A stretch of 32,000 nt of DNA from Candidatus Electronema halotolerans (GTDB taxonomy: Bacteria; Desulfobacterota; Desulfobulbia; Desulfobulbales; Desulfobulbaceae). Every line of letters starts with the position of its first letter. Position 1 is the stretch's first letter. The stretch is taken from NCBI GenBank assembly GCA_942493095.1, contig OW818675.1, positions 1,230,001-1,262,000 on the forward strand, in the 5' to 3' direction. Position numbers and translations under genes: made by a program. The notes beneath the pieces are model-generated. The model had not been told where the DNA came from. It was given only the letters and a program-made list of their open reading frames with translations, and did no database searches. Of this stretch, positions 4,885 to 17,209 are shown in pieces.

Positions 4885-5030
4885 TGCTGCTGTCCTGAAA
4901 AAAAGTCTTTTTTGTTCCGCTTAGTTTACTCTATTATAGCGGATAATTTGAAGCAAATTTTCAGGATCATGTATTCGCAATTCATGCCCCCAAGCCCGGC
5001 TGTCAGTTATGCGGCGGTCGGAGAAAATTG

Positions 5031-5059
5031 TTGACAGAAAAACAATTTCGTCTTATGCT
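5031..5059 (+). promoter_or_regulatory. candidate sigma70-type promoter (TTGACA-17-TATGCT) upstream of hypA
   Basis: TTGACA at 5031-5036, a 17-nt spacer, TATGCT at 5054-5059. A second element, TGgTATAAT at 5131-5139, sits 8 nt before the hypA ATG. Confidence 0.4.
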
Positions 5060-5146
5060 GGACGGAAAATGATGGCTCATGCAGTTATTCCAAACAGTTG
5101 CCTGTTTACGCGGATATGCTGGGCCAAGTCTGGTATAATCGCATCC

Positions 5147-5515
5147 ATGCACGAATTCAGCATTTGCCATGCCTTGGTTGAGAAGGTGCTCGAAGAGGCG
5201 GCCCGGCTTGAGCCGCCCGCGCTCCGGGTCTGCAAGACCGGTGTGGCCTGCGGCAGCCTGCGGCAAATCGTGCCGGAATACCTTCAGACTGCCTACACTG
5301 CCCTGACCAAGGGCACCATTGCCGAGGACTCGCTGCTGGAGATTCGGGAAATCCCGGCGGCAGGCCGCTGCGGCTGCTGCGGCTGGCAGGGCGAGCTGCC
5401 GAACAATGTCTTTGCCTGTCCAGCCTGCGCCGCGCCAATCGCGGATATGTGTGCCGGGCAGGAATTATATCTGGAAAACATAGAGCTGGAGCAGGATGAC
5501 GAGACGGGAAATTAA
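5147..5515 (+). CDS. hypA: hydrogenase nickel-insertion protein HypA
   Basis: I chose the internal start MHEFSICHALVEKVLE, the typical HypA N-terminus. Zinc site is CGCCGWQG...ACPAC. Typical length (122 aa). Confidence 0.9.
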   Translation: MHEFSICHALVEKVLEEAARLEPPALRVCKTGVACGSLRQIVPEYLQTAYTALTKGTIAEDSLLEIREIPAAGRCGCCGWQGELPNNVFACPACAAPIADMCAGQELYLENIELEQDDETGN

Positions 5516-6149
5516 GGTCTATCAGGAGCTGATGGGCGACAATGCGCACTGGGCGCAGCAGACGCGGGACTTGCTGGCCAAACAGCAGCTGGCCATGATC
5601 AACCTGATCGGCTCGCCCGGCTGCGGCAAGACCGCCCTGCTGGAGCGGCTGGCCGAGCAGCCCGATCTCCGCTTTGCCGTCTTGGAAGGAGACATTGAGA
5701 CCACCAACGATGCCGAGCGGCTGGCCCGGAAAAACGTGCTGGCCAGCCAGCTCCTGACCAAGGGCAGCTGCCACTTGGAGGCCAAGCTGGTCCATCATGC
5801 CCTCCGCGACCTGCCCTTGGCCGAGCTGGATTTGGTGGTGGTGGAGAATGTCGGCAATCTGGTCTGCCCGGCTGAGTTTGACATTGGCGAGCAGGCCAAA
5901 ATCGCTGTCCTCAGCGTGACCGAAGGCGAGGACAAGCCGCTCAAATACCCGCTCCTCTTTCGCGAGGCCAAGGCTGTCATCCTCTCCAAAATAGACCTGC
6001 TGCCCCACCTGCGTTTTGATCTTGAGGCGTGCATTGCCAATGTCCGCACGATCAACGGTGCTGTGCCCTTGTTTCATCTCTCCTCCGCCTCCGGGGCAGG
6101 CATGGACGATTTTACCGCCTGGCTGGGCAAGGAAATTCTGCATGGTTAA
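5496..6149 (+). CDS. hypB: hydrogenase maturation GTPase HypB
   Basis: P-loop GSPGCGKTALLERL, then CHLEA, ENVGNLVCPA and SKIDLL motifs. Overlaps hypA by 20 nt. Confidence 0.92.
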   Translation: MTRREIKVYQELMGDNAHWAQQTRDLLAKQQLAMINLIGSPGCGKTALLERLAEQPDLRFAVLEGDIETTNDAERLARKNVLASQLLTKGSCHLEAKLVHHALRDLPLAELDLVVVENVGNLVCPAEFDIGEQAKIAVLSVTEGEDKPLKYPLLFREAKAVILSKIDLLPHLRFDLEACIANVRTINGAVPLFHLSSASGAGMDDFTAWLGKEILHG

Positions 6150-8484
6150 GCGAGTCAGAGCCATAATCAGCGGGCGGGTGCAGGGAGTCGGCTTCCGCCC
6201 GGCTGTGCACCGTCATGCCTGCCAAGCTGGCTTGGTCGGTTTTGTCGCCAACACTGCTCGCGGGGTGCTGACCGAAGTGCAGGGCAGCGCGGAGCAGATT
6301 GAGGGTTTTCTTCGCATACTGAAAGAAAATCCGCCGCCGCAGGCCCGGATTGAGGCGGTGGAGCTGACCGAGCTGCCGCCAAACCGGGAAAGCGGCTTTC
6401 AGATTCTGCCCAGCAGGCTGGCAGACAGCACGGTGCTCAGTCCGCCGCCTGACCTGTCCACCTGCGCCCAATGCGGGCGGGAAATCTTTACCCAGGACAA
6501 CCGCCGCTGGCATTATCCCTTCACCAACTGCACCGACTGCGGCCCTCGCTTCACGATCATTGAGGCCCTGCCTTATGACCGCGAGCGCACGGCCATGAAA
6601 GCCTTTGCCATGTGTCAAGAATGCCTTGCCGAATATCGCTCCCCGGCCCGCCGCCGCTTTGAGGCCCAGCCCAATGCCTGCCCGGACTGCGGCCCGCAGC
6701 TCCTGCTCTTGAACAGCCAGGGACAGGCTGTGGAAGGCGACCCTCTCAGCCAAGCGGCCAGCCTGCTCCAAGCCGGAGCAATTGTCGCGGTCAAAGGGCT
6801 GGGCGGCTATCATTTAGCCTGCTCCGCTGCTGACCTCACTGCCATCCGGCGGCTGCGCACGGCCAAGCAACGTCCGGCCAAGCCGTTGGCAGTCATGTTC
6901 GCCTCATTTGCCCAACTTGAACGCTTCTGCACGGTCGGGAAAGCCGAACGAGCTGCGCTGGCCTCCTGCGCCGGGCCGGTTGTGGTCTGCAAACGAAGTC
7001 TTGGCTGCGCCCTACCGCCAGAGATCGCCCCGGACAGCGAGGACATTGGCGCGCTGCTTCCCTACACAGCTCTGCATCATCTGCTGCTCTGTGAAAGCGG
7101 GCCGTTAGTGCTGACCAGCGGCAACTGCGGCGGTCAGCCTTTGGCCAAGGATGAACACGAGCTGGCTGAAATCTTTCCGGCCATCGCCTCCCATGCCCTG
7201 ACCCATGACCGGGCCATTGTCCGCCGCTGCGATGATTCGGTGCTCCGCTTTGCTGACCAGCAGCAGATCGTCATCCGCCGGGCACGCGGCTATGTGCCCG
7301 ACCCGATCCAGCTTCCCTTCACCGGCCCGCCGGTGCTGGCCTGCGGCAGCGACCAAAAGAACACCTTCTGCCTCACACGCGGCAGCCAAGCCTTTCTTTC
7401 CCAGCATATCGGCGATCTGAAAGAATTCCAAACCTTTCAGTTCTTCTCCGAGGCGGTTGCTGATTTCAAGACCCTCTTGGCAATAGAGCCGGAACTGGCC
7501 GCCTGCGACCTCCATCCTGATTACCGCAGCACCCGCTTTGCTTTTGCCCTGAAAGACATTTGTCACAGTCCAGTCCGAGTTCAGCATCATCATGCCCATA
7601 TCGCCTCCTGCATGGCCGAGAACAGACTGAGCGGCCCGGTGATTGGCGTGGCCTTTGACGGCAGCGGCGCAGGCTTGGACGGCACAGTCTGGGGCGGCGA
7701 GTTTCTTATTGCTGATTACTGCGGCTTTGAGCGGGCCGCGCATTTGAAACCCTATCCCATGCCGGGCGGCAGCCGGGTGGTGCTGGAGCCGCAGCGCATG
7801 GCTCTGAGCTGTCTGGCGGCTGAATTCCCTGCTTCTTGGCCCGCATTGGCCAAAACCTTGCTGCCCGGCGTGACTGTCGAGGATTGCCGCTGCTTGGTCT
7901 CGCTGTCTCACAGCCGGATTCATGCGCCGCTGACCTCAAGCTGCGGACGGCTCTTTGACGCGGTCGCCGCATTGATGGGCATCTGCGCCACCTGTTCTTA
8001 TGAAGGGCAGGCCGCAGTCCGGCTGGAGGGACTGACCAAGCCTGACCTGCATGAGCGTTATTCCTTTGCGCTGGAACTGGACAAGCAGCCCATGCAGCTC
8101 TCCTTTGCCCCGGCCTTTGCCGAGCTGGTCGCTGATCTGCAAAAAAAGACGGAACAGGCAGTGATTGCCACCCGCTTCCACAACGCCATCAGCGCGGCCA
8201 TTGTTGCGGTCTGTGAGGAACTGCGTCAGCAGCAGGGTCTGAATACGGTTGCCCTGTCCGGCGGGGTCTTTCAAAATGCCTTTCTGCTCAAGCGTGTCTG
8301 CGCCGGGCTGCGGGAGAAAGAGTTTGCCGTCTTCTGTCATCAGGCGGTGCCGCCCAATGACGGCGGCCTGTCGCTGGGACAGGCGGCGGTTGCCCTTGCG
8401 CAACATGCGGAGCGGGAAAGCAGCCCCCATCTTGCCGAGCTGGGCGGAACTGAGCCGGAGTTGCAGGATATTCCTCGGCGGTAA
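6142..8484 (+). CDS. hypF: carbamoyltransferase HypF
   Basis: The start MVKRVRAIISGRVQGVGFRP (acylphosphatase domain) overlaps the hypB stop (ATGGTTAA). Two zinc-finger pairs are present (CAQCGREI...CTDCGPRF; CQECLAEY...CPDCGPQL), followed by YrdC-like and Kae1-like regions. The ORF-track start 6016 is an upstream TTG inside hypB. Confidence 0.92.
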   Translation: MVKRVRAIISGRVQGVGFRPAVHRHACQAGLVGFVANTARGVLTEVQGSAEQIEGFLRILKENPPPQARIEAVELTELPPNRESGFQILPSRLADSTVLSPPPDLSTCAQCGREIFTQDNRRWHYPFTNCTDCGPRFTIIEALPYDRERTAMKAFAMCQECLAEYRSPARRRFEAQPNACPDCGPQLLLLNSQGQAVEGDPLSQAASLLQAGAIVAVKGLGGYHLACSAADLTAIRRLRTAKQRPAKPLAVMFASFAQLERFCTVGKAERAALASCAGPVVVCKRSLGCALPPEIAPDSEDIGALLPYTALHHLLLCESGPLVLTSGNCGGQPLAKDEHELAEIFPAIASHALTHDRAIVRRCDDSVLRFADQQQIVIRRARGYVPDPIQLPFTGPPVLACGSDQKNTFCLTRGSQAFLSQHIGDLKEFQTFQFFSEAVADFKTLLAIEPELAACDLHPDYRSTRFAFALKDICHSPVRVQHHHAHIASCMAENRLSGPVIGVAFDGSGAGLDGTVWGGEFLIADYCGFERAAHLKPYPMPGGSRVVLEPQRMALSCLAAEFPASWPALAKTLLPGVTVEDCRCLVSLSHSRIHAPLTSSCGRLFDAVAALMGICATCSYEGQAAVRLEGLTKPDLHERYSFALELDKQPMQLSFAPAFAELVADLQKKTEQAVIATRFHNAISAAIVAVCEELRQQQGLNTVALSGGVFQNAFLLKRVCAGLREKEFAVFCHQAVPPNDGGLSLGQAAVALAQHAERESSPHLAELGGTEPELQDIPRR

Positions 8485-8490
8485 ACTGGC

Positions 8491-8516
8491 AGGGTGCATT
8501 CCATGCACCCTTTTCT
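8491..8516 (+). terminator. hairpin terminator after hypF
   Basis: AGGGTGCAT (8491-8499) pairs with ATGCACCCT (8503-8511), followed by TTTCT. Confidence 0.6.
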
Positions 8517-8528
8517 GGTGCTGCACGA

Positions 8529-8639
8529 CTGAGTCTTAATCATGAAGTTGCCGCGTTCTTCAGAAACTGCGGCAAAGGCTGGCAAGACAAGCTGAACGAC
8601 ATTCTTCAGCGGTATGTGGATTCACAGAGGATGGCATAA
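8529..8639 (+). pseudogene. 3' remnant of a BrnA-antitoxin (DUF4415) family gene
   Basis: This frame reads LSLNHEVAAFFRNCGKGWQDKLNDILQRYVDSQRMA*, matching the family C-terminal pattern (LD.DV..FK..GKGYQTRIN..LR.YV). There is no start codon or N-terminal part, and no partner toxin. Confidence 0.45.
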
Positions 8640-8768
8640 GCAGAAAATGCTGGATGTTCTTTGTTTTGATATGCTATCCTAAAGCGGCCTGATTAACAAA
8701 CAAAAGCCTTTTCGCATCCTGCGCAGCCATATCTCGTATAGAGGTAAAAACGTAAAAGAGGTTTATTC

Positions 8769-9308
8769 ATGGCTCTTCTTCCACCAATCGAGATTGAATC
8801 AGAACTAAGCTACGCTTACTTGCATGCCGTGGCAGCAATGGCGGGCATGTCGTGTGAATGTTCAGGCCGACATACTGATAAGCTGGGAGTTGATGCTATT
8901 GTCAGAGCGCAAGAACAGTTTTCCGATGAATCAATTTTGACTGATTTGGCTCTTGACGTACAATTGAAAGCAACAATTGTCGCACCAAGCAAAAAAAATG
9001 ACAGACTTTCATATCACCTCAAAGGAATAGACAGATACGATAAACTGAGAAAATCGACAGTAAATCCAGCCAGAATTCTTGTTGTTCTCTTTCTGCCAAA
9101 TAATGCCGCTGACTGGATGCACCAGACCCAAGAACAGTTAGCAATAAAAAAATGTGCTTGGTGGGTAAGTCTTAGAGGAGCACCTGAAACTGATAACGAT
9201 TCTGGCGTTACAGTATATCTTCCTTGCGCTCAGGTATTCAACGTGCAAAGTCTCAGAGATATTATGACACGTCTGTCTAAACAGGAGGAACTGCTGTATG
9301 ATGTATAA
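8769..9308 (+). CDS. DUF4365-like (restriction-endonuclease fold) protein
   Basis: RBS AAGAGG. SELSYAYLHAVAAMAGMSC...TDKLGVDAIV...LDVQLKAT...ILVVLFLPNNAADWM...AWWVSLRG matches my memory of the DUF4365 pattern (D.GiD...vQvKat). AT-richer than the flanks. Confidence 0.7.
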   Translation: MALLPPIEIESELSYAYLHAVAAMAGMSCECSGRHTDKLGVDAIVRAQEQFSDESILTDLALDVQLKATIVAPSKKNDRLSYHLKGIDRYDKLRKSTVNPARILVVLFLPNNAADWMHQTQEQLAIKKCAWWVSLRGAPETDNDSGVTVYLPCAQVFNVQSLRDIMTRLSKQEELLYDV

Positions 9309-10455
9309 TTATCAATTATTACAGTTAGCCAGTCAGATACTTCCAACTGAAGCAAGAAATTATGCGAAAGTTCATGGCTGGGAGCCTGTCACGGCAGCTA
9401 AAGGCAGGATTTGGGTCTTCAGGCATAGCGTGCAGAAACTTCGCCAGCTCGTTATCCCTATAGACCAAGAGGACGATGCATATTCTGAAGCAATTGTAGA
9501 GGTGTTGCAACGAATAGCTGACGATGAAAAGCGCAGTCCAATTGCTGTTGCTTCAGACCTCCTGATGCCGAATTCAGATATTGTACGGTTTCGAGTCGCC
9601 GGGGATGATATATTAGCTGGAAATTTATCTCTTGAGGATGGAGCATGTCTGATTGAAGGCGCAAAACGAGCTATTCTCTCGTCAGCGTGCTCGGTTATTA
9701 ACAAGACAACACACCATCCAAGAATGAGCAGGAGTGAAGCAGCAGAGATGCTGAAAGCCTGCAAGTTTGGCCAAACTGAATATGGGAGTTTTGTCGCTAA
9801 AATCGCCTGCCCTCTTAATGCGGTGGAGACAAATGCGTCTTTATTAGATGCGACGATGCCGTTTGTACGACATGCAACAAAATTGCTATCTTCAGCATGT
9901 CATCAACTTGTTGAGAGCATTGAAAATGATGCCGTATCAGCATTGATAGAAAACAATTCAGCCAACCCGATAATAACATCTAATCTCTGTGATGCTCTGC
10001 TGCGAATGCAAGGAGGGAGGGAAAAAAGCTCTCTTGGTATCGACATCACATGGGCTTCTAATCCCAATGTTCCCATTCCTGATGTTCCAAGGGGGGTAGT
10101 CTTCAAAGCGGAATACTTCCGAACAGTAGATGAAATACAAAGAGCATTGCGGCCTAAAAAAGAGAGCGACAGTTCTCAAACGTTGCTTGGCACTGTAGAA
10201 ACTTTAAATGGCCCTGTAGGTGAGGATGGCCGCCGTTCCGGTGAAGTGATTTTAGCCCTGCTTCTTGAGGATGAAGAGGTTGTCCGTGCCCGTGCTGTTC
10301 TTGGTCCAGATGAATATGCCCGTGCTGTTCAAGCTCATAACAAAGGGCGAACTTATATAATGGTTAAAGGTGTGCTTCAACGAGGGAACCGAATCAGCAG
10401 CCTGCAACAGGTTGAATCCTTCGATCTTGTAGGTCAATCTCCTCCTTCAGAGTAA
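9298..10455 (+). CDS. hypothetical 385-aa protein, translationally coupled to the DUF4365-like gene
   Basis: GGAGGA lies 8 nt upstream of the ATG. There is an 11-nt overlap with the upstream gene. No Walker A or other motif recognised. AT-richer composition. Confidence 0.7.
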   Translation: MMYNYQLLQLASQILPTEARNYAKVHGWEPVTAAKGRIWVFRHSVQKLRQLVIPIDQEDDAYSEAIVEVLQRIADDEKRSPIAVASDLLMPNSDIVRFRVAGDDILAGNLSLEDGACLIEGAKRAILSSACSVINKTTHHPRMSRSEAAEMLKACKFGQTEYGSFVAKIACPLNAVETNASLLDATMPFVRHATKLLSSACHQLVESIENDAVSALIENNSANPIITSNLCDALLRMQGGREKSSLGIDITWASNPNVPIPDVPRGVVFKAEYFRTVDEIQRALRPKKESDSSQTLLGTVETLNGPVGEDGRRSGEVILALLLEDEEVVRARAVLGPDEYARAVQAHNKGRTYIMVKGVLQRGNRISSLQQVESFDLVGQSPPSE

Positions 10456-10478: not shown

Positions 10479-10618
10479 GAAGAAACCATCTGAATAGTTC
10501 CCCGGAAACATACTGGTATGTTCTCAGAAAACCATCTATATGGTTTTGGAAAACCATTCAGATAGTTTCCTCAGTACCATATAGATAGTTTCTCCGAAAC
10601 CATTCAGATGGTTTTCCG
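10479..10618. repeat. array of six phased 23-bp imperfect palindromes (consensus GAAAACCAT-N4-ATGGTTTTC)
   Basis: Dyad centres are near 10491.5, 10514.5, 10537.5, 10559.5, 10582.5 and 10605.5, spaced 23, 23, 22, 23 and 23 bp. The best units are AAAACCATctatATGGTTTT (10528-10547) and GAAACCATtcagATGGTTTTC (10596-10616). Confidence 0.85.
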
Positions 10619-10653
10619 TCGTCCTTCTCCTTGCCGCATTGCCCTCTATTTTG

Positions 10654-10682
10654 TTGACAAAGCCCAGCCGCCGCCGTATCTT
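10654..10682 (+). promoter_or_regulatory. sigma70-type promoter module A (TTGACA-17-TATCTT)
   Basis: TTGACA at 10654-10659, a 17-nt spacer, TATCTT at 10677-10682. It shares extended similarity with the modules at 13284 and 17685. Confidence 0.5.
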
Positions 10683-10741
10683 GGCCTGATCAAGCAAAAT
10701 CGTTTGCATCATCATATCTTTGAATCCGCATGGAGGGCATT

Positions 10742-11812
10742 ATGGGCACTGTGCAATATCGCGTCGAGCCGAATCCGCTGACCAAACCTGCATCCTACAA
10801 GCTCCGCTTCATCCCCCAACAGACAGCGGGCTACGATGAGCTGGCCGCTGCCCTTGCTGAGGACAACGGCCTGAGCGTCGAGCAGGCCAAGGCATTCCTC
10901 CAGTCAACGGTGAAGAATATCAAGAAGATGCTCTGCAACGGCATTCAGGTGACGCTGGAGGAAGCCTTCACTTTCGCCCTCTCCTTTCATGCCCGCCTGA
11001 CCAACCCGGATGACCCGCTGCCGCCGATTGACGAACTCCTTCGGGTCAGCATTTCGGCCAGTCGTCCTTTTGTCCAAGATATTGGGCAAGATATCACCTT
11101 GGAACGGGTTGCGGCAGCAGAAAAGGCTCCGGCCATCCTCTCCGCCGCAGACACGACCCTGCTGCTGAACAATGTCCTCAACCCGGACGGCGTGCTCCGC
11201 CTGACCGGCAGCAATCTTGCCTTTGACCGCAGCAGCCCGGACTGCCGCTGCCTCATTGTCGGCACCCAGAGCGGCAGCACGGAACAAACTCAGTTCGCGG
11301 GCATCAGCGACAGCGAAGTCCTGCTGGTGCCGCATATTCCGGCGCAGGCAAATCCTTGGAATAACGAGTACACGGTCTCGATCACCACCCGCTACACTGA
11401 ACATGGCTCGCTGCGCACCGGCACTTATGGACGCAAGCTGCGCTCGCCCCTGACTGCTGTCAATCTCAGTCATCCGAACCCGCCGGAGACCGGCATTCTT
11501 ACGGGCAGCGCGGCAAGCGCGTATGTCAGCATCATCGGCTGCACCATCTCGGCCAGCGAGCGGCTGCGCATTCAAGTCGATGCCAGTGTGCAGGAAAATC
11601 AGCTTTCCTTCCGCTTGGTGGCCATGCAGGACGGCGGCGCAATTGGCGGCATGGTGCCGGTGACGGCTAACGGGGAATTCACCCTGCCCGGTTTTGCCGG
11701 TTCCGCAGTCAGCAGCTTGCAGATCAGGGTTGATGACTATGCCGCCCTGCGAACGATGATCCGCAACGATTATGACAGCAGACTGGTGGATATTTTGGAT
11801 TTGCAGGTGTAG
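10742..11812 (+). CDS. HU-like DNA-binding domain protein with DUF4469-like Ig-fold region(s)
   Basis: ATG 10742 follows GGAGGG (10732-10737). The ORF-track start 10730 is an alternative. N-terminus YRVEPNPLTKPASYKLRFIPQQTAGYDELAAALAEDNGLSVEQAKAFLQSTVKNIKKMLCNGIQVTLEEAFTF resembles the Bacteroidota HU-HIG family. The downstream LNPDGVLRLTGSNLAF...YTVSITTRYTEHGSLRTG resembles DUF4469. Called from memory of the families. Confidence 0.6.
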   Translation: MGTVQYRVEPNPLTKPASYKLRFIPQQTAGYDELAAALAEDNGLSVEQAKAFLQSTVKNIKKMLCNGIQVTLEEAFTFALSFHARLTNPDDPLPPIDELLRVSISASRPFVQDIGQDITLERVAAAEKAPAILSAADTTLLLNNVLNPDGVLRLTGSNLAFDRSSPDCRCLIVGTQSGSTEQTQFAGISDSEVLLVPHIPAQANPWNNEYTVSITTRYTEHGSLRTGTYGRKLRSPLTAVNLSHPNPPETGILTGSAASAYVSIIGCTISASERLRIQVDASVQENQLSFRLVAMQDGGAIGGMVPVTANGEFTLPGFAGSAVSSLQIRVDDYAALRTMIRNDYDSRLVDILDLQV

Positions 11813-12644: not shown

Positions 12645-12902
12645 ATGCCTGAATTAAGCAGATTCCTTGGAATAGTGATACGCATGTATCTTCGTGAACA
12701 TGCTCCTGCGCATTTCCATGCCGAGTATGGAGAATACGAAATCACGGTGGATATTGAATCAGGAGTTGTGACGGGAAAGTTTCCACGAAGAGCATTGATG
12801 GCCGTTCTTGACTGGTACGTGCTGCATCAGGATGAACTCATGGCTAACTGGAATGCTGCCATGAACAGAAAGCCTCTGTCAAAAATTGAACCATTGGAAT
12901 AG
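12645..12902 (+). CDS. DUF4160 family protein
   Basis: MPELSRFLGIVIRMYLREHAPAHFHAEYGEYE...LDWYVLHQDELMANW is the canonical DUF4160 pattern. Confidence 0.85.
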   Translation: MPELSRFLGIVIRMYLREHAPAHFHAEYGEYEITVDIESGVVTGKFPRRALMAVLDWYVLHQDELMANWNAAMNRKPLSKIEPLE

Positions 12903-12904
12903 GT

Positions 12905-13171
12905 ATGTTCACACATGTTGAGCAAGCAAAATATCTTGACGGCTATAAAGTATGGTTAGCCTTCAACGACGGAGCAGAGGGTGAAATAGACTTGTCATCT
13001 GAATTATACGGCGAGATATTTGAACCATTGAAGGATGTGTCGTATTTCAAGTCGTTCACCTTGGAAGGCCACACCCTGTCATGGAGCAACGGAGCAGATT
13101 TTGCTCCTGAGTTCCTGCGTGAGCATGTAAACTGCATTGATCGGAGAAAAGCAGTTATAGATGATAACTGA
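12905..13171 (+). CDS. DUF2442 family protein
   Basis: YLDGYKVWLAFNDGAEGEIDLS...IFEPLKD...TLSWSNGADFAPEFL is the canonical DUF2442 pattern. It starts 2 nt after the DUF4160 gene, the usual pairing. Confidence 0.85.
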   Translation: MFTHVEQAKYLDGYKVWLAFNDGAEGEIDLSSELYGEIFEPLKDVSYFKSFTLEGHTLSWSNGADFAPEFLREHVNCIDRRKAVIDDN

Positions 13172-16320: not shown

Positions 16321-16674
16321 TTAGTAGCTATAGCCTCTGTATTCATACCCATTGTTATTGTTGTAGTAAGGTGTTCCGGGCGTTCTTGGCGTTCCGGGCA
16401 CTCCATAAGCTCCTGGTGCTCCATAAGCTCCGGGCACTCCATAAGCACCGGGTGTTCCATAAGCACCGCGATATTCGTAGCGGCTGCCGCGATAACCATA
16501 ACTTCCATTATTGTAGTACGTTCCTGGATAAGCACCGCGATATTCATAGCGGCTGCCGTAGCCATAGCCGCGTTCATAGCCGCTGCCGTATCCGCCGCTG
16601 CCCTGGGCAGTTGCGAAAAGTGCCAGTACGAGGAATGATCCGGCCAAGGCGATAGCTGCTGTTGTCTTTTTCAC
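16321..16674 (-). CDS. secreted Gly/Tyr-rich low-complexity protein, copy 1
   Basis: GTG start 7 nt after AGGAGG. Signal peptide MKKTTAAIALAGSFLVLALFATA. The mature 94 residues use only 11 amino-acid types, with 23 Tyr and 25 Gly by my count. Internal repeats are SRYEYRGAY x2 and GAYG(V/A)PG x4. Confidence 0.75.
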   Translation of the reverse strand: MKKTTAAIALAGSFLVLALFATAQGSGGYGSGYERGYGYGSRYEYRGAYPGTYYNNGSYGYRGSRYEYRGAYGTPGAYGVPGAYGAPGAYGVPGTPRTPGTPYYNNNNGYEYRGYSY

Positions 16675-16855: not shown

Positions 16856-17209
16856 TTAGTAGCTATAGCCTCTGTATTCATACCCATTGTTATTGTTGTA
16901 GTAAGGTGTTCCGGGCGTTCTTGGCGTTCCGGGCACTCCATAAGCTCCTGGTGCTCCATAAGCTCCGGGCACTCCATAAGCACCGGGTGTTCCATAAGCA
17001 CCGCGATATTCGTAGCGGCTGCCGCGATAACCATAACTTCCATTATTGTAGTACGTTCCTGGATAAGCACCGCGATATTCATAGCGGCTGCCGTAGCCAT
17101 AGCCGCGTTCATAGCCGCTGCCATATCCGCCGCTGCCTTGGGCAGTTGCGAAAAGTGCCAGTACGAGGAATGATCCGGCCAAGGCGATAGCTGCTGTTGT
17201 CTTTTTCAC
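16856..17209 (-). CDS. secreted Gly/Tyr-rich low-complexity protein, copy 2 (identical protein)
   Basis: Same as copy 1. The two CDS differ at two positions, both synonymous (CAG/CAA Gln, TAC/TAT Tyr). Confidence 0.75.
   Translation of the reverse strand: MKKTTAAIALAGSFLVLALFATAQGSGGYGSGYERGYGYGSRYEYRGAYPGTYYNNGSYGYRGSRYEYRGAYGTPGAYGVPGAYGAPGAYGVPGTPRTPGTPYYNNNNGYEYRGYSY

Follow-up and report, generated by a model that had tools for sequence, protein, structure and literature searches.

A phased array of 23-bp palindromes ahead of an HU-Ig gene in Candidatus Electronema halotolerans and its counterparts across a cable-bacterial gene family

Palindromic boxes arranged in tandem near a sigma-70 promoter are known from the ARG boxes (ArgR/AhrC) and the TyrR boxes, which are 18-22 bp long, follow one another head to tail with a few base pairs between them and serve as cooperative sites for dimers that form part of a higher oligomer. 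Arrays of short units are also found in the ParR/parC, omega heptad, SopB/sopC and TubR/tubC systems, where the bound protein forms a helical filament along the array and controls its own expression; the sopC units contain an internal inverted repeat. Plasmid iterons (R6K, RK2 oriV) have a period of about 22-23 bp without spacers, are served by one cognate protein and diverge between incompatibility groups. Here we describe an array with features of each in Candidatus Electronema halotolerans, located in a 32,000-nucleotide stretch of DNA (assembly GCA_942493095.1, contig OW818675.1, positions 1,230,001 to 1,262,000 of the forward strand; hereafter the window, with position 1 as its first letter). 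Positions 10479-10618 are occupied by six 22/23-bp units that abut one another and whose internal dyad symmetry is evident from the sequence itself; they precede a gene for a protein that combines an HU-fold domain with immunoglobulin (Ig)-like domains (HU-Ig). Judging from the sequence comparisons below, the element is of the operator-array kind, with a DNA-binding protein that is probably cognate.

A phased palindrome array shared across HU-Ig paralogues

The dyad centres of the six units (Table 1) are spaced 23, 23, 22, 23 and 23 bp apart, exactly as stated in an original prediction made from the letters of this stretch, and the 22/23-bp array at 10479-10618 is recovered both by Tandem Repeats Finder (TRF) and by a repeat finder. 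Allowing up to 3 mismatches, the pattern AAACCAT-N4-ATGGTTT has nine matches in the window, five of them inside the array; shuffled windows gave a mean of 1.25 matches and a maximum of 4, none reaching nine. The six-unit array is real and non-random. The consensus quoted in the original prediction is matched in full by U3 and U6, whereas the right half of U1, U4 and U5 reads ATAGTT and U2 is another palindrome altogether. The ACATAC-N2-GTATGT core of U2 is the unit type that forms the arrays of the closest orthologues (L001, L003, L004, L085 and L087 in our numbering of related loci). The array ends 36 bp from the TTGACA hexamer of the downstream promoter, and 48.5 bp separate the centre of U6 from the first base of this -35 hexamer. 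A step of 23 bp corresponds to 2.19 turns of B-DNA, that is, to a rotation of about 69 degrees per unit, and the earlier statement that all sites lie on roughly the same DNA face is therefore imprecise for relaxed B-DNA: to bring the sites onto one face, binding would have to unwind the DNA to about 11.5 bp per turn.

The same layout, built from other palindromes, was found at the first two homologous loci, with ACATACnnGTATGT at L001 and ACATGCTAGCATGT at L002. We examined self-similarity at lags of 15-34 bp in the regions upstream of 65 paralogues; the best lag was exactly 23 bp in 57 of them (binomial p 2e-65), and the unit sequences are unrelated between paralogues (GAGTCAn6TGACTC, GGACTTAn6TAAGTCC, CTCCATGCnnGCATGGAG, AATCCTAn6TAGGATT, CCACTATAGTGG). 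The arrays comprise 2-8 units, which are 16-20-bp palindromes of two 6-8-bp half-sites, and dyad symmetry is kept in nearly all of them. Nearly all of the 65 regions also carry a TTGACA-17-TAnnnT promoter, usually 86-89 nt ahead of the ATG, and the dyad axes stand in a fixed register to its first -35 base, near -25, -48, -71, -94 and so on. In a per-locus phase fit, 48 of the 65 regions fell within a phase window that 30% would occupy by chance (p 7e-13); a dyad profile averaged over all loci gave no clear peaks. The -25 slot, taken up in the window by positions 10619-10653, holds a further palindromic unit in many other paralogues.

A scan of about 0.87 Mb of cable-bacterial DNA for tandem self-similarity gave 100 segments at lag 23, compared with 0-18 at any other lag, and in 82 of the 100 cases a family gene follows. 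Since 18 and 21 are multiples of three, the peaks at these two lags are probably coding repeats. The order of array, sigma-70-type promoter and HU-like gene is present in about 80% of roughly 100 homologous genes, and a distant Electrothrix subfamily (Electrothrix sp. Rat3) also bears a 23-bp array, with a GAGCATGCTC core. A private 23-bp array for almost every HU-Ig paralogue is apparently an undescribed rule in cable bacteria; literature searches returned nothing on DUF4469 and nothing on arrays of such a kind in these organisms.

Within the clade nearest the window, the outer bases of the units (AAnAC...GTnTT) are constant and the inner bases vary, giving ACCAT-N4-ATGGT, ACATAC-N2-GTATGT and ACATGC-N2-GCATGT variants. 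The units of L084 join an ACCAT-type half to an ACATAC-type (GTATGT) half in several orientations, and hybrids of this sort also occur at L083 and L012. Because such hybrid units lose the palindrome, and with it their self-complementarity, yet keep recognisable half-sites, we consider the half-site rather than a hairpin to be the recognised module. Two half-sites of 6-8 bp per unit would be the pattern expected of a dimeric reader. A metagenome scan for close orthologues returned 16 loci, and the upstream sequence of 9 of these was examined, too few for deriving a residue-to-base code.

We then compared array sharing with protein similarity in 108 pairs of at least 65% identity. Sharing follows identity over the N-terminal residues 1-125 (Spearman 0.67, p 1.6e-15) far more closely than C-terminal identity (0.27), the pairs not being phylogenetically independent. 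Alignment columns that change with the array are concentrated at residues 20-33, 58-80 and 102-118; past residue 170 there is almost no signal. The window protein and its homologue at L083 illustrate the pattern, as they are 94% identical after residue 150 and 72% identical before residue 125, their arrays differ, and the DNA identity between the two genes jumps at about nucleotide +400, in the linker. By their sequences, the family genes are mosaic, with breakpoints at the interdomain linker. Since the array tracks the N-terminal and not the C-terminal domain, the inherited unit appears to consist of the array, the promoter and the HU domain. What sets these loci apart is the combination of a fixed 23-bp period and promoter register over about 80 arrays, motifs that are private to single paralogues and the shuffling of the array-HU module.

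Two individual arrays have features of their own. At L079:4700-4900 (Ca. Electronema sp. KV), a GGACTTA-type array is broken by an A/T-rich insertion of about 95 bp that is flanked by a duplicated piece of the array (tacgttactctttcggacttatata) and resembles a small mobile insertion. Ca. Electronema sp. PJ has a second array at L002:19084-19441, 9 kb downstream of the L002 gene, which has several 9-mers in common with the ACATGCTAGCATGT-type array of that gene; behind it there is no more than a 35-aa piece of a family gene, and it looks like a decayed duplicate.

The HU-Ig protein and its family

The gene downstream of the array (10742-11812, plus strand) encodes 356 aa with an HU-fold domain and two Ig-like domains (HU-HIG/DUF4469). 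In Pfam, the protein matches Bac_DNA_binding with 24.7 bits (cut-off 22.4), and its HU-HIG match of 22.9 bits falls just under the cut-off of 26.2. An AlphaFold (AF2) model with a mean predicted local distance difference test (pLDDT) score of 78 places an N-terminal beta-hairpin ahead of an HU fold at about residues 30-125, with beta-sandwiches at residues 150-356. The top Foldseek match of this model is PDB 4FMR (E 6e-9), the Bacteroides HU-plus-Ig protein (BVU_2165) that defines the HU-HIG clade (Pfam PF18291 and DUF4469/PF14734), and HU/IHF structures, including HU/IHF-DNA complexes, come next with a probability of 1.0. A profile of the family sequences found no match in the PDB, 4FMR included, which was reached by the fold search alone. 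Judged by its predicted fold, the 356-aa protein belongs structurally to the HU-HIG/DUF4469 family, in which it represents a longer form from a new host lineage.

With the HU-HIG clade the protein shares an N-terminal HU fold fused to one or more Ig-like beta-sandwiches, and its family resembles the clade, in the traits that the HU-HIG passages of Burroughs et al. describe (PMC5499826), in lineage-specific expansion, fast divergence, the lack of a conserved operon partner and occasional adjacent pairs. Those same passages (PMC5499826) do not mention an upstream repeat array. Unlike the HU-HIG clade of Bacteroidetes, the proteins described here occur in cable bacteria (Desulfobulbaceae), and the window protein has 356 aa with two beta-sandwich domains, compared with about 235 aa for HU-HIG/4FMR.

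In Candidatus Electronema and Electrothrix, homologues bear the annotation "DUF4469 domain-containing protein", and a scan of one genome per species gave 80 loci, all from cable bacteria or from metagenome-assembled genomes (MAGs) of Desulfobulbaceae. One MAG holds at least 16 copies and several strains hold at least 9-11. The family is small, with 723 clusters at E <=1e-3 among 1.84 billion representatives in a profile search, and those distant representatives that could be traced are again cable-bacterial or of unknown origin. Neighbouring genes differ between the family loci and none is conserved across them. Several representatives in the profile search are 640-840 aa long. In GCA_024712245.1 (L102/L103:1404-6164), three consecutive genes form an apparent operon without 23-bp arrays; the second and third (346 and 344 aa) have HU-HIG and DUF4469 matches, and the first (837 aa) is without a Pfam match.

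Possible readers of the array

In order to account for these features at the molecular level, we propose that the array is a cis-regulatory operator or upstream-activating array bound cooperatively by a dimeric reader, most probably the gene's own product, and we assign this full mechanism, self-binding included, a probability of about 0.5. Each 23-bp unit would bind one dimer that reads the two half-sites, and contacts between neighbouring dimers would set the 23-bp period regardless of the unit sequence. The resulting nucleoprotein filament would end at a set distance from the -35 hexamer, placed to influence RNA polymerase. Binding would be through the N-terminal HU-fold module of the downstream gene's product, making the locus autoregulated. 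The gene family has expanded in cable bacteria, to at least 16 copies in one genome, each with a private palindromic "address". Among the options listed in the original prediction, the cooperative operator set is the one backed by the comparative data, namely the period, the register and the share of family genes preceded by an array. All of the sites are located before the -35 hexamer; their dyads precede it by about 25 or 48 bp, which places them roughly at -60 or -84 from the inferred start site. Because these positions recall those of upstream-binding (class I) activators, we lean towards activation or positive feedback rather than simple occlusion.

Several observations weigh against this proposal. 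The family proteins are acidic, with a mean net charge of -8.8 and a basic part confined to residues 1-28, and their HU arms are short and acidic (NPDDPLPP), which speaks against direct binding. In the HU-HIG passages of Burroughs et al. 2017 (PMC5499826), the Ig domain in 4FMR is argued to occlude the DNA clasp and HU-HIG proteins are held unlikely to be sequence-specific transcription factors, although for the cable-bacterial branch the arrays hint at the opposite. About 20% of the family genes have no detectable array. Conversely, some 12 orphan arrays have no adjacent family gene, most of them orthologous to gene-linked arrays in other genomes. Three orphan arrays (L014:1393-1530, L050:2091-2201 and L064:1086-1214) are each followed by a TTGACA hexamer and an unrelated open reading frame (ORF), these ORFs encoding 119 aa (ribbon-helix-helix-like by eye), 130 aa and 215 aa (with a signal-peptide-like N-terminus). 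The persistence of orphan arrays means that the binder need not be encoded in cis. The L013 and L014 proteins are 85% identical overall and have unrelated arrays, and the co-inheritance of array and N-terminal domain is equally expected from physical linkage combined with intragenic recombination.

The rival with the most to be said for it, though we regard it as unlikely, is that another factor reads the arrays in trans, either as a set of unlinked dimeric regulators or as paralogues that regulate one another, the HU-Ig gene being merely a target. Orphan arrays kept without a cognate neighbour, three of them with a TTGACA hexamer and an unrelated ORF, would suit such a factor, as would the acidic proteins with their truncated arms and the published view of HU-HIG as not sequence-specific, in the passages of PMC5499826 already referred to. 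Cross-talk is conceivable, given that the window array includes the orthologue-type unit U2 and that L084 mixes unit types. The orphan array at L017:1816-1993 has the same motif as the paralogue L047 of the same MAG. However, at least 16 motifs in one genome would require at least 16 dedicated unlinked regulators, the HU-Ig gene is the only constant array partner with no other gene repeatedly linked to arrays across loci, and arrays change type in step with the N-terminal domain encoded beside them. If the proteins do not read the arrays, other factors must read these motifs, at least 16 per genome, which would be equally unexplained. We find it improbable that the units act as RNA hairpins, in a sense or an antisense transcript, or as DNA cruciforms, rather than as duplex binding sites. 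Every unit can form a 6-9-bp stem and the predicted folding surpasses that of shuffled sequences by a wide margin (plus-strand z -5.5, minus-strand z -8.3), but strong folding is trivial for any palindromic repeat and makes these z-scores uninformative. Dyad mismatches favour A.C, an antisense wobble, over G.T, a sense wobble (143 vs 94, p 0.002), which amounts to a weak antisense bias with no sense-strand signal, and 60% of the mismatches form no wobble pair on either strand. That last point counts against structure, as do the hybrid units, which abolish complementarity and keep half-sites, the sharing of sequence among the units of an array, which structure alone does not require, and the location of the array, which precedes the promoter and keeps a constant phase with its -35 hexamer. 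An Rfam search of the array returned only sub-threshold miRNA-like matches, artefacts of the palindromes. The transcribed tandem hairpins that the original prediction had allowed for are weakened by the non-palindromic hybrids and by the missing sense-strand wobble signal.

Other explanations place the array in a mobile or a neutral context, and we give very little credence to either. A centromere of plasmid or phage type, a group of iterons or a mobile-element end with several sites, such as that of a transposon, would fit the tandem 22/23-bp units, typical of iterons, the internal inverted repeat known from sopC-like centromere units and the setting of the locus in a variable island by a candidate defence system and toxin-antitoxin genes. 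Yet no Rep protein, ParA/ParM/TubZ, transposase or integrase was found among the neighbours, the window has no second array, at least 16 arrays in one genome are each in a fixed promoter register, the two-unit pattern is absent from viral contigs and the flanks are chromosomal, with hypABF on one side and SPFH on the other. More specifically, Pfam scans of the neighbours gave no Rep family and no cas genes, no partition nucleoside triphosphatase (NTPase; ParA, ParM, TubZ) or centromere-binding gene lies within about 5 kb on either side, and there is no transposase among the window genes scanned, a set that leaves out some ORFs beyond 22.7 kb. The centromere, iteron and recombinase-end options of the original prediction lose their footing here, as no partition NTPase, Rep, transposase or second inverted array is found nearby. 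Neutral satellite-like tandem DNA, born by slippage, homogenised by unequal exchange and hitch-hiking with the gene family, is just as improbable in our view. The variation in unit number from 2 to 8, the replacement of arrays faster than the gene and the insertion carried by one array (L079) are in its favour, but such DNA would not be expected to hold exactly 23 bp as its period in 57 of 65 arrays of unrelated sequence, to be dyad-symmetric in almost every array or to stay in one register with the -35 hexamer.

Dispersal as a repetitive extragenic palindromic (REP) element or bacterial interspersed mosaic element (BIME) was considered and rejected, there being no match in the window beyond chance and 82 of the 100 lag-23 segments lying upstream of family genes. 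The exact motif AACCAT-N4-ATGGTT is absent from all 103 related loci (0.9 Mb of related DNA), and the full palindrome is found nowhere else in the window, so that the dispersed REP-like repeat raised against the array in the original prediction is not seen within the window and this related DNA. A phage origin was rejected on the absence of the two-unit pattern from viral contigs. A CRISPR (clustered regularly interspaced short palindromic repeats) array, already dismissed in the original prediction, was likewise rejected: the units abut without spacers and there are no cas genes among the neighbours scanned.

A more far-reaching version of the self-binding proposal, which we consider doubtful, is that the HU module has here become a reprogrammable sequence-specific reader of palindromes of about 20 bp, with some 16-20 orthogonal address-plus-reader cassettes per genome that are shuffled onto Ig tails at the linker. 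If so, cassettes with 2-8 cooperative sites would provide a bank of independent self-activating (bistable) switches or of locus-specific DNA anchors, and such a bank might underlie cell-to-cell heterogeneity or defence-related variation in the multicellular filaments. Proteins that read their own arrays would constitute a natural orthogonal protein-operator set on the HU fold, with specificity evolving by module shuffling, and would add a new level of regulation in cable bacteria, organisms not yet open to genetic manipulation. HU-HIG is a large family with no known function, argued not to consist of sequence-specific DNA binders, and a family-wide cis-element (about 80 arrays, about 100 genes) offers a testable handle on that question in the form of a predicted binding site for each paralogue.

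Genomic context and likeness to known systems

Table 1. Positions of the array units, promoter elements and HU-Ig gene segments in the window.
Feature	Coordinates	Strand	Sequence	Description	Dyad centre	Mismatches to consensus
U1	10483-10500	.	AAACCATctgaATAGTTC	AAACCAT-ctga-ATAGTTC, imperfect ACCAT-type palindrome	10491.5	2
U2	10507-10522	.	AACATACtgGTATGTT	AACATAC-tg-GTATGTT, ACATAC-type palindrome	10514.5	
U3	10528-10547	.	AAAACCATctatATGGTTTT	AAAACCAT-ctat-ATGGTTTT, perfect palindrome with 8-bp arms	10537.5	0
U4	10551-10568	.	AAACCATtcagATAGTTT	AAACCAT-tcag-ATAGTTT	10559.5	1
U5	10574-10591	.	GTACCATatagATAGTTT	GTACCAT-atag-ATAGTTT, most degenerate unit	10582.5	3
U6	10597-10614	.	AAACCATtcagATGGTTT	AAACCAT-tcag-ATGGTTT, promoter-proximal unit	10605.5	
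Spacer	10619-10653	+	CTATTTTG	C-rich, then A/T-rich stretch (sequence given); fills the -25 slot		
Sigma-70-type promoter	10654-10682	+		TTGACA 10654-10659, 17-bp spacer, TATCTT 10677-10682		
Inferred 5' untranslated region	10683-10741	+		Ribosome-binding site GGAGGG 10732-10737		
N-terminal module	10742-11116	+		Residues 1-125: basic beta-hairpin and HU fold, truncated acidic arms		
Disordered linker	11117-11188	+		Residues 126-149, pLDDT <50; mosaic-gene breakpoints here		
Two beta-sandwich (Ig-like/DUF4469) domains and stop codon	11189-11812	+		Phylogeny decoupled from array		

The near-consensus promoter that had been noted ahead of the HU-like gene is confirmed as TTGACA-17-TATCTT (Table 1). 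The spacer in front of it is kept in the close clade, and homology to the close orthologues starts at 10611-10646. As for the gene itself, the start placed at 10730 in the original prediction gives way to the ATG at 10742, the most likely start by its position behind GGAGGG and by the homologues, which begin MGTVQY.

The window is chromosomal. The genes hypA, hypB and hypF (5009-8484) and a terminator (8491-8511) are followed by an island of lower GC content, and farther along come methylenetetrahydrofolate reductase and molybdate-type transport genes, with SPFH on the flank opposite hypABF. Toxin-antitoxin genes and a candidate defence system adjoin the locus, which sits in a variable island. 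Of the two genes before the array, a DUF4365 gene (8769-9308, plus strand) matches PADLOC PDC-M02A (E 2e-77) and the overlapping 385-aa gene (9298-10455, plus strand) matches PDC-M02B (E 2e-125), so the 385-aa gene is not the orphan it had been taken for. By these matches, the genes at 8769-10455 would be the pair of the described candidate anti-phage system PDC-M02A/B. The 385-aa gene was rejected as a source of the array binder, since it is a member of a candidate defence system and is not conserved beside arrays at other loci.

Other parts of the window recur elsewhere. About 120 bp of the stretch 8524-8687, just after the hypF terminator, has 86-88% identity to three other cable-bacterial loci (L004:3415-3535, L002:18242-18334 and L001:8458-8499); it resembles the 3' end of a small ORF (...GWQDKLNDILQRYVDSQRMA*) and is possibly the remnant of an antitoxin-type gene. 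Downstream of the HU-Ig gene, a DUF4160/DUF2442 gene pair (12645-13171, plus strand) has about 90% DNA identity to L002:13700-14226 and L008:3329-3817, again near family genes, which indicates some right-hand synteny. On the minus strand, two identical tandem genes (16321-16674 and 16856-17209) encode a 117-aa secreted protein with a signal peptide followed by Gly/Tyr-rich repeats (YEYRGAYG, AYGxPG), and in these copies TRF reports 18/36-bp repeats at 16393-16468 and 16928-17003.

By analogy, the array would work most like the ArgR/TyrR tandem boxes or the ParR/omega/SopB arrays, and yet we place it in neither group, nor with the iterons, because there is no partition NTPase, Rep or transposase among the neighbours scanned and because the context is chromosomal and multi-copy. 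With plasmid iterons it shares phased units of about 22-23 bp without spacers. Iterons, however, repeat directly and lack symmetry, and Rep monomers bind them at origins that include A/T-rich and DnaA elements, whereas the units described here are dyad-symmetric, lack an accompanying rep gene and form an array in register with a promoter. The likeness to the ParR, omega, SopB and TubR arrays lies in the many abutting short units beside the promoter of the gene for the (here putative) binder. Unlike them, the HU-Ig arrays have a different unit length (23 bp) and would be read by a different protein fold, and no evidence of a segregation function was seen among the window neighbours scanned. The ArgR/AhrC and TyrR boxes share with the present array the tandem arrangement of palindromes close to a sigma-70 promoter. 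They number two or three, follow one motif per regulon, usually overlap the promoter and are served by proteins of unrelated folds; in the HU-Ig family, by contrast, 2-8 units, six of them in the window, lie wholly upstream of the -35 hexamer at a strict 23-bp period, with a motif that differs from paralogue to paralogue.

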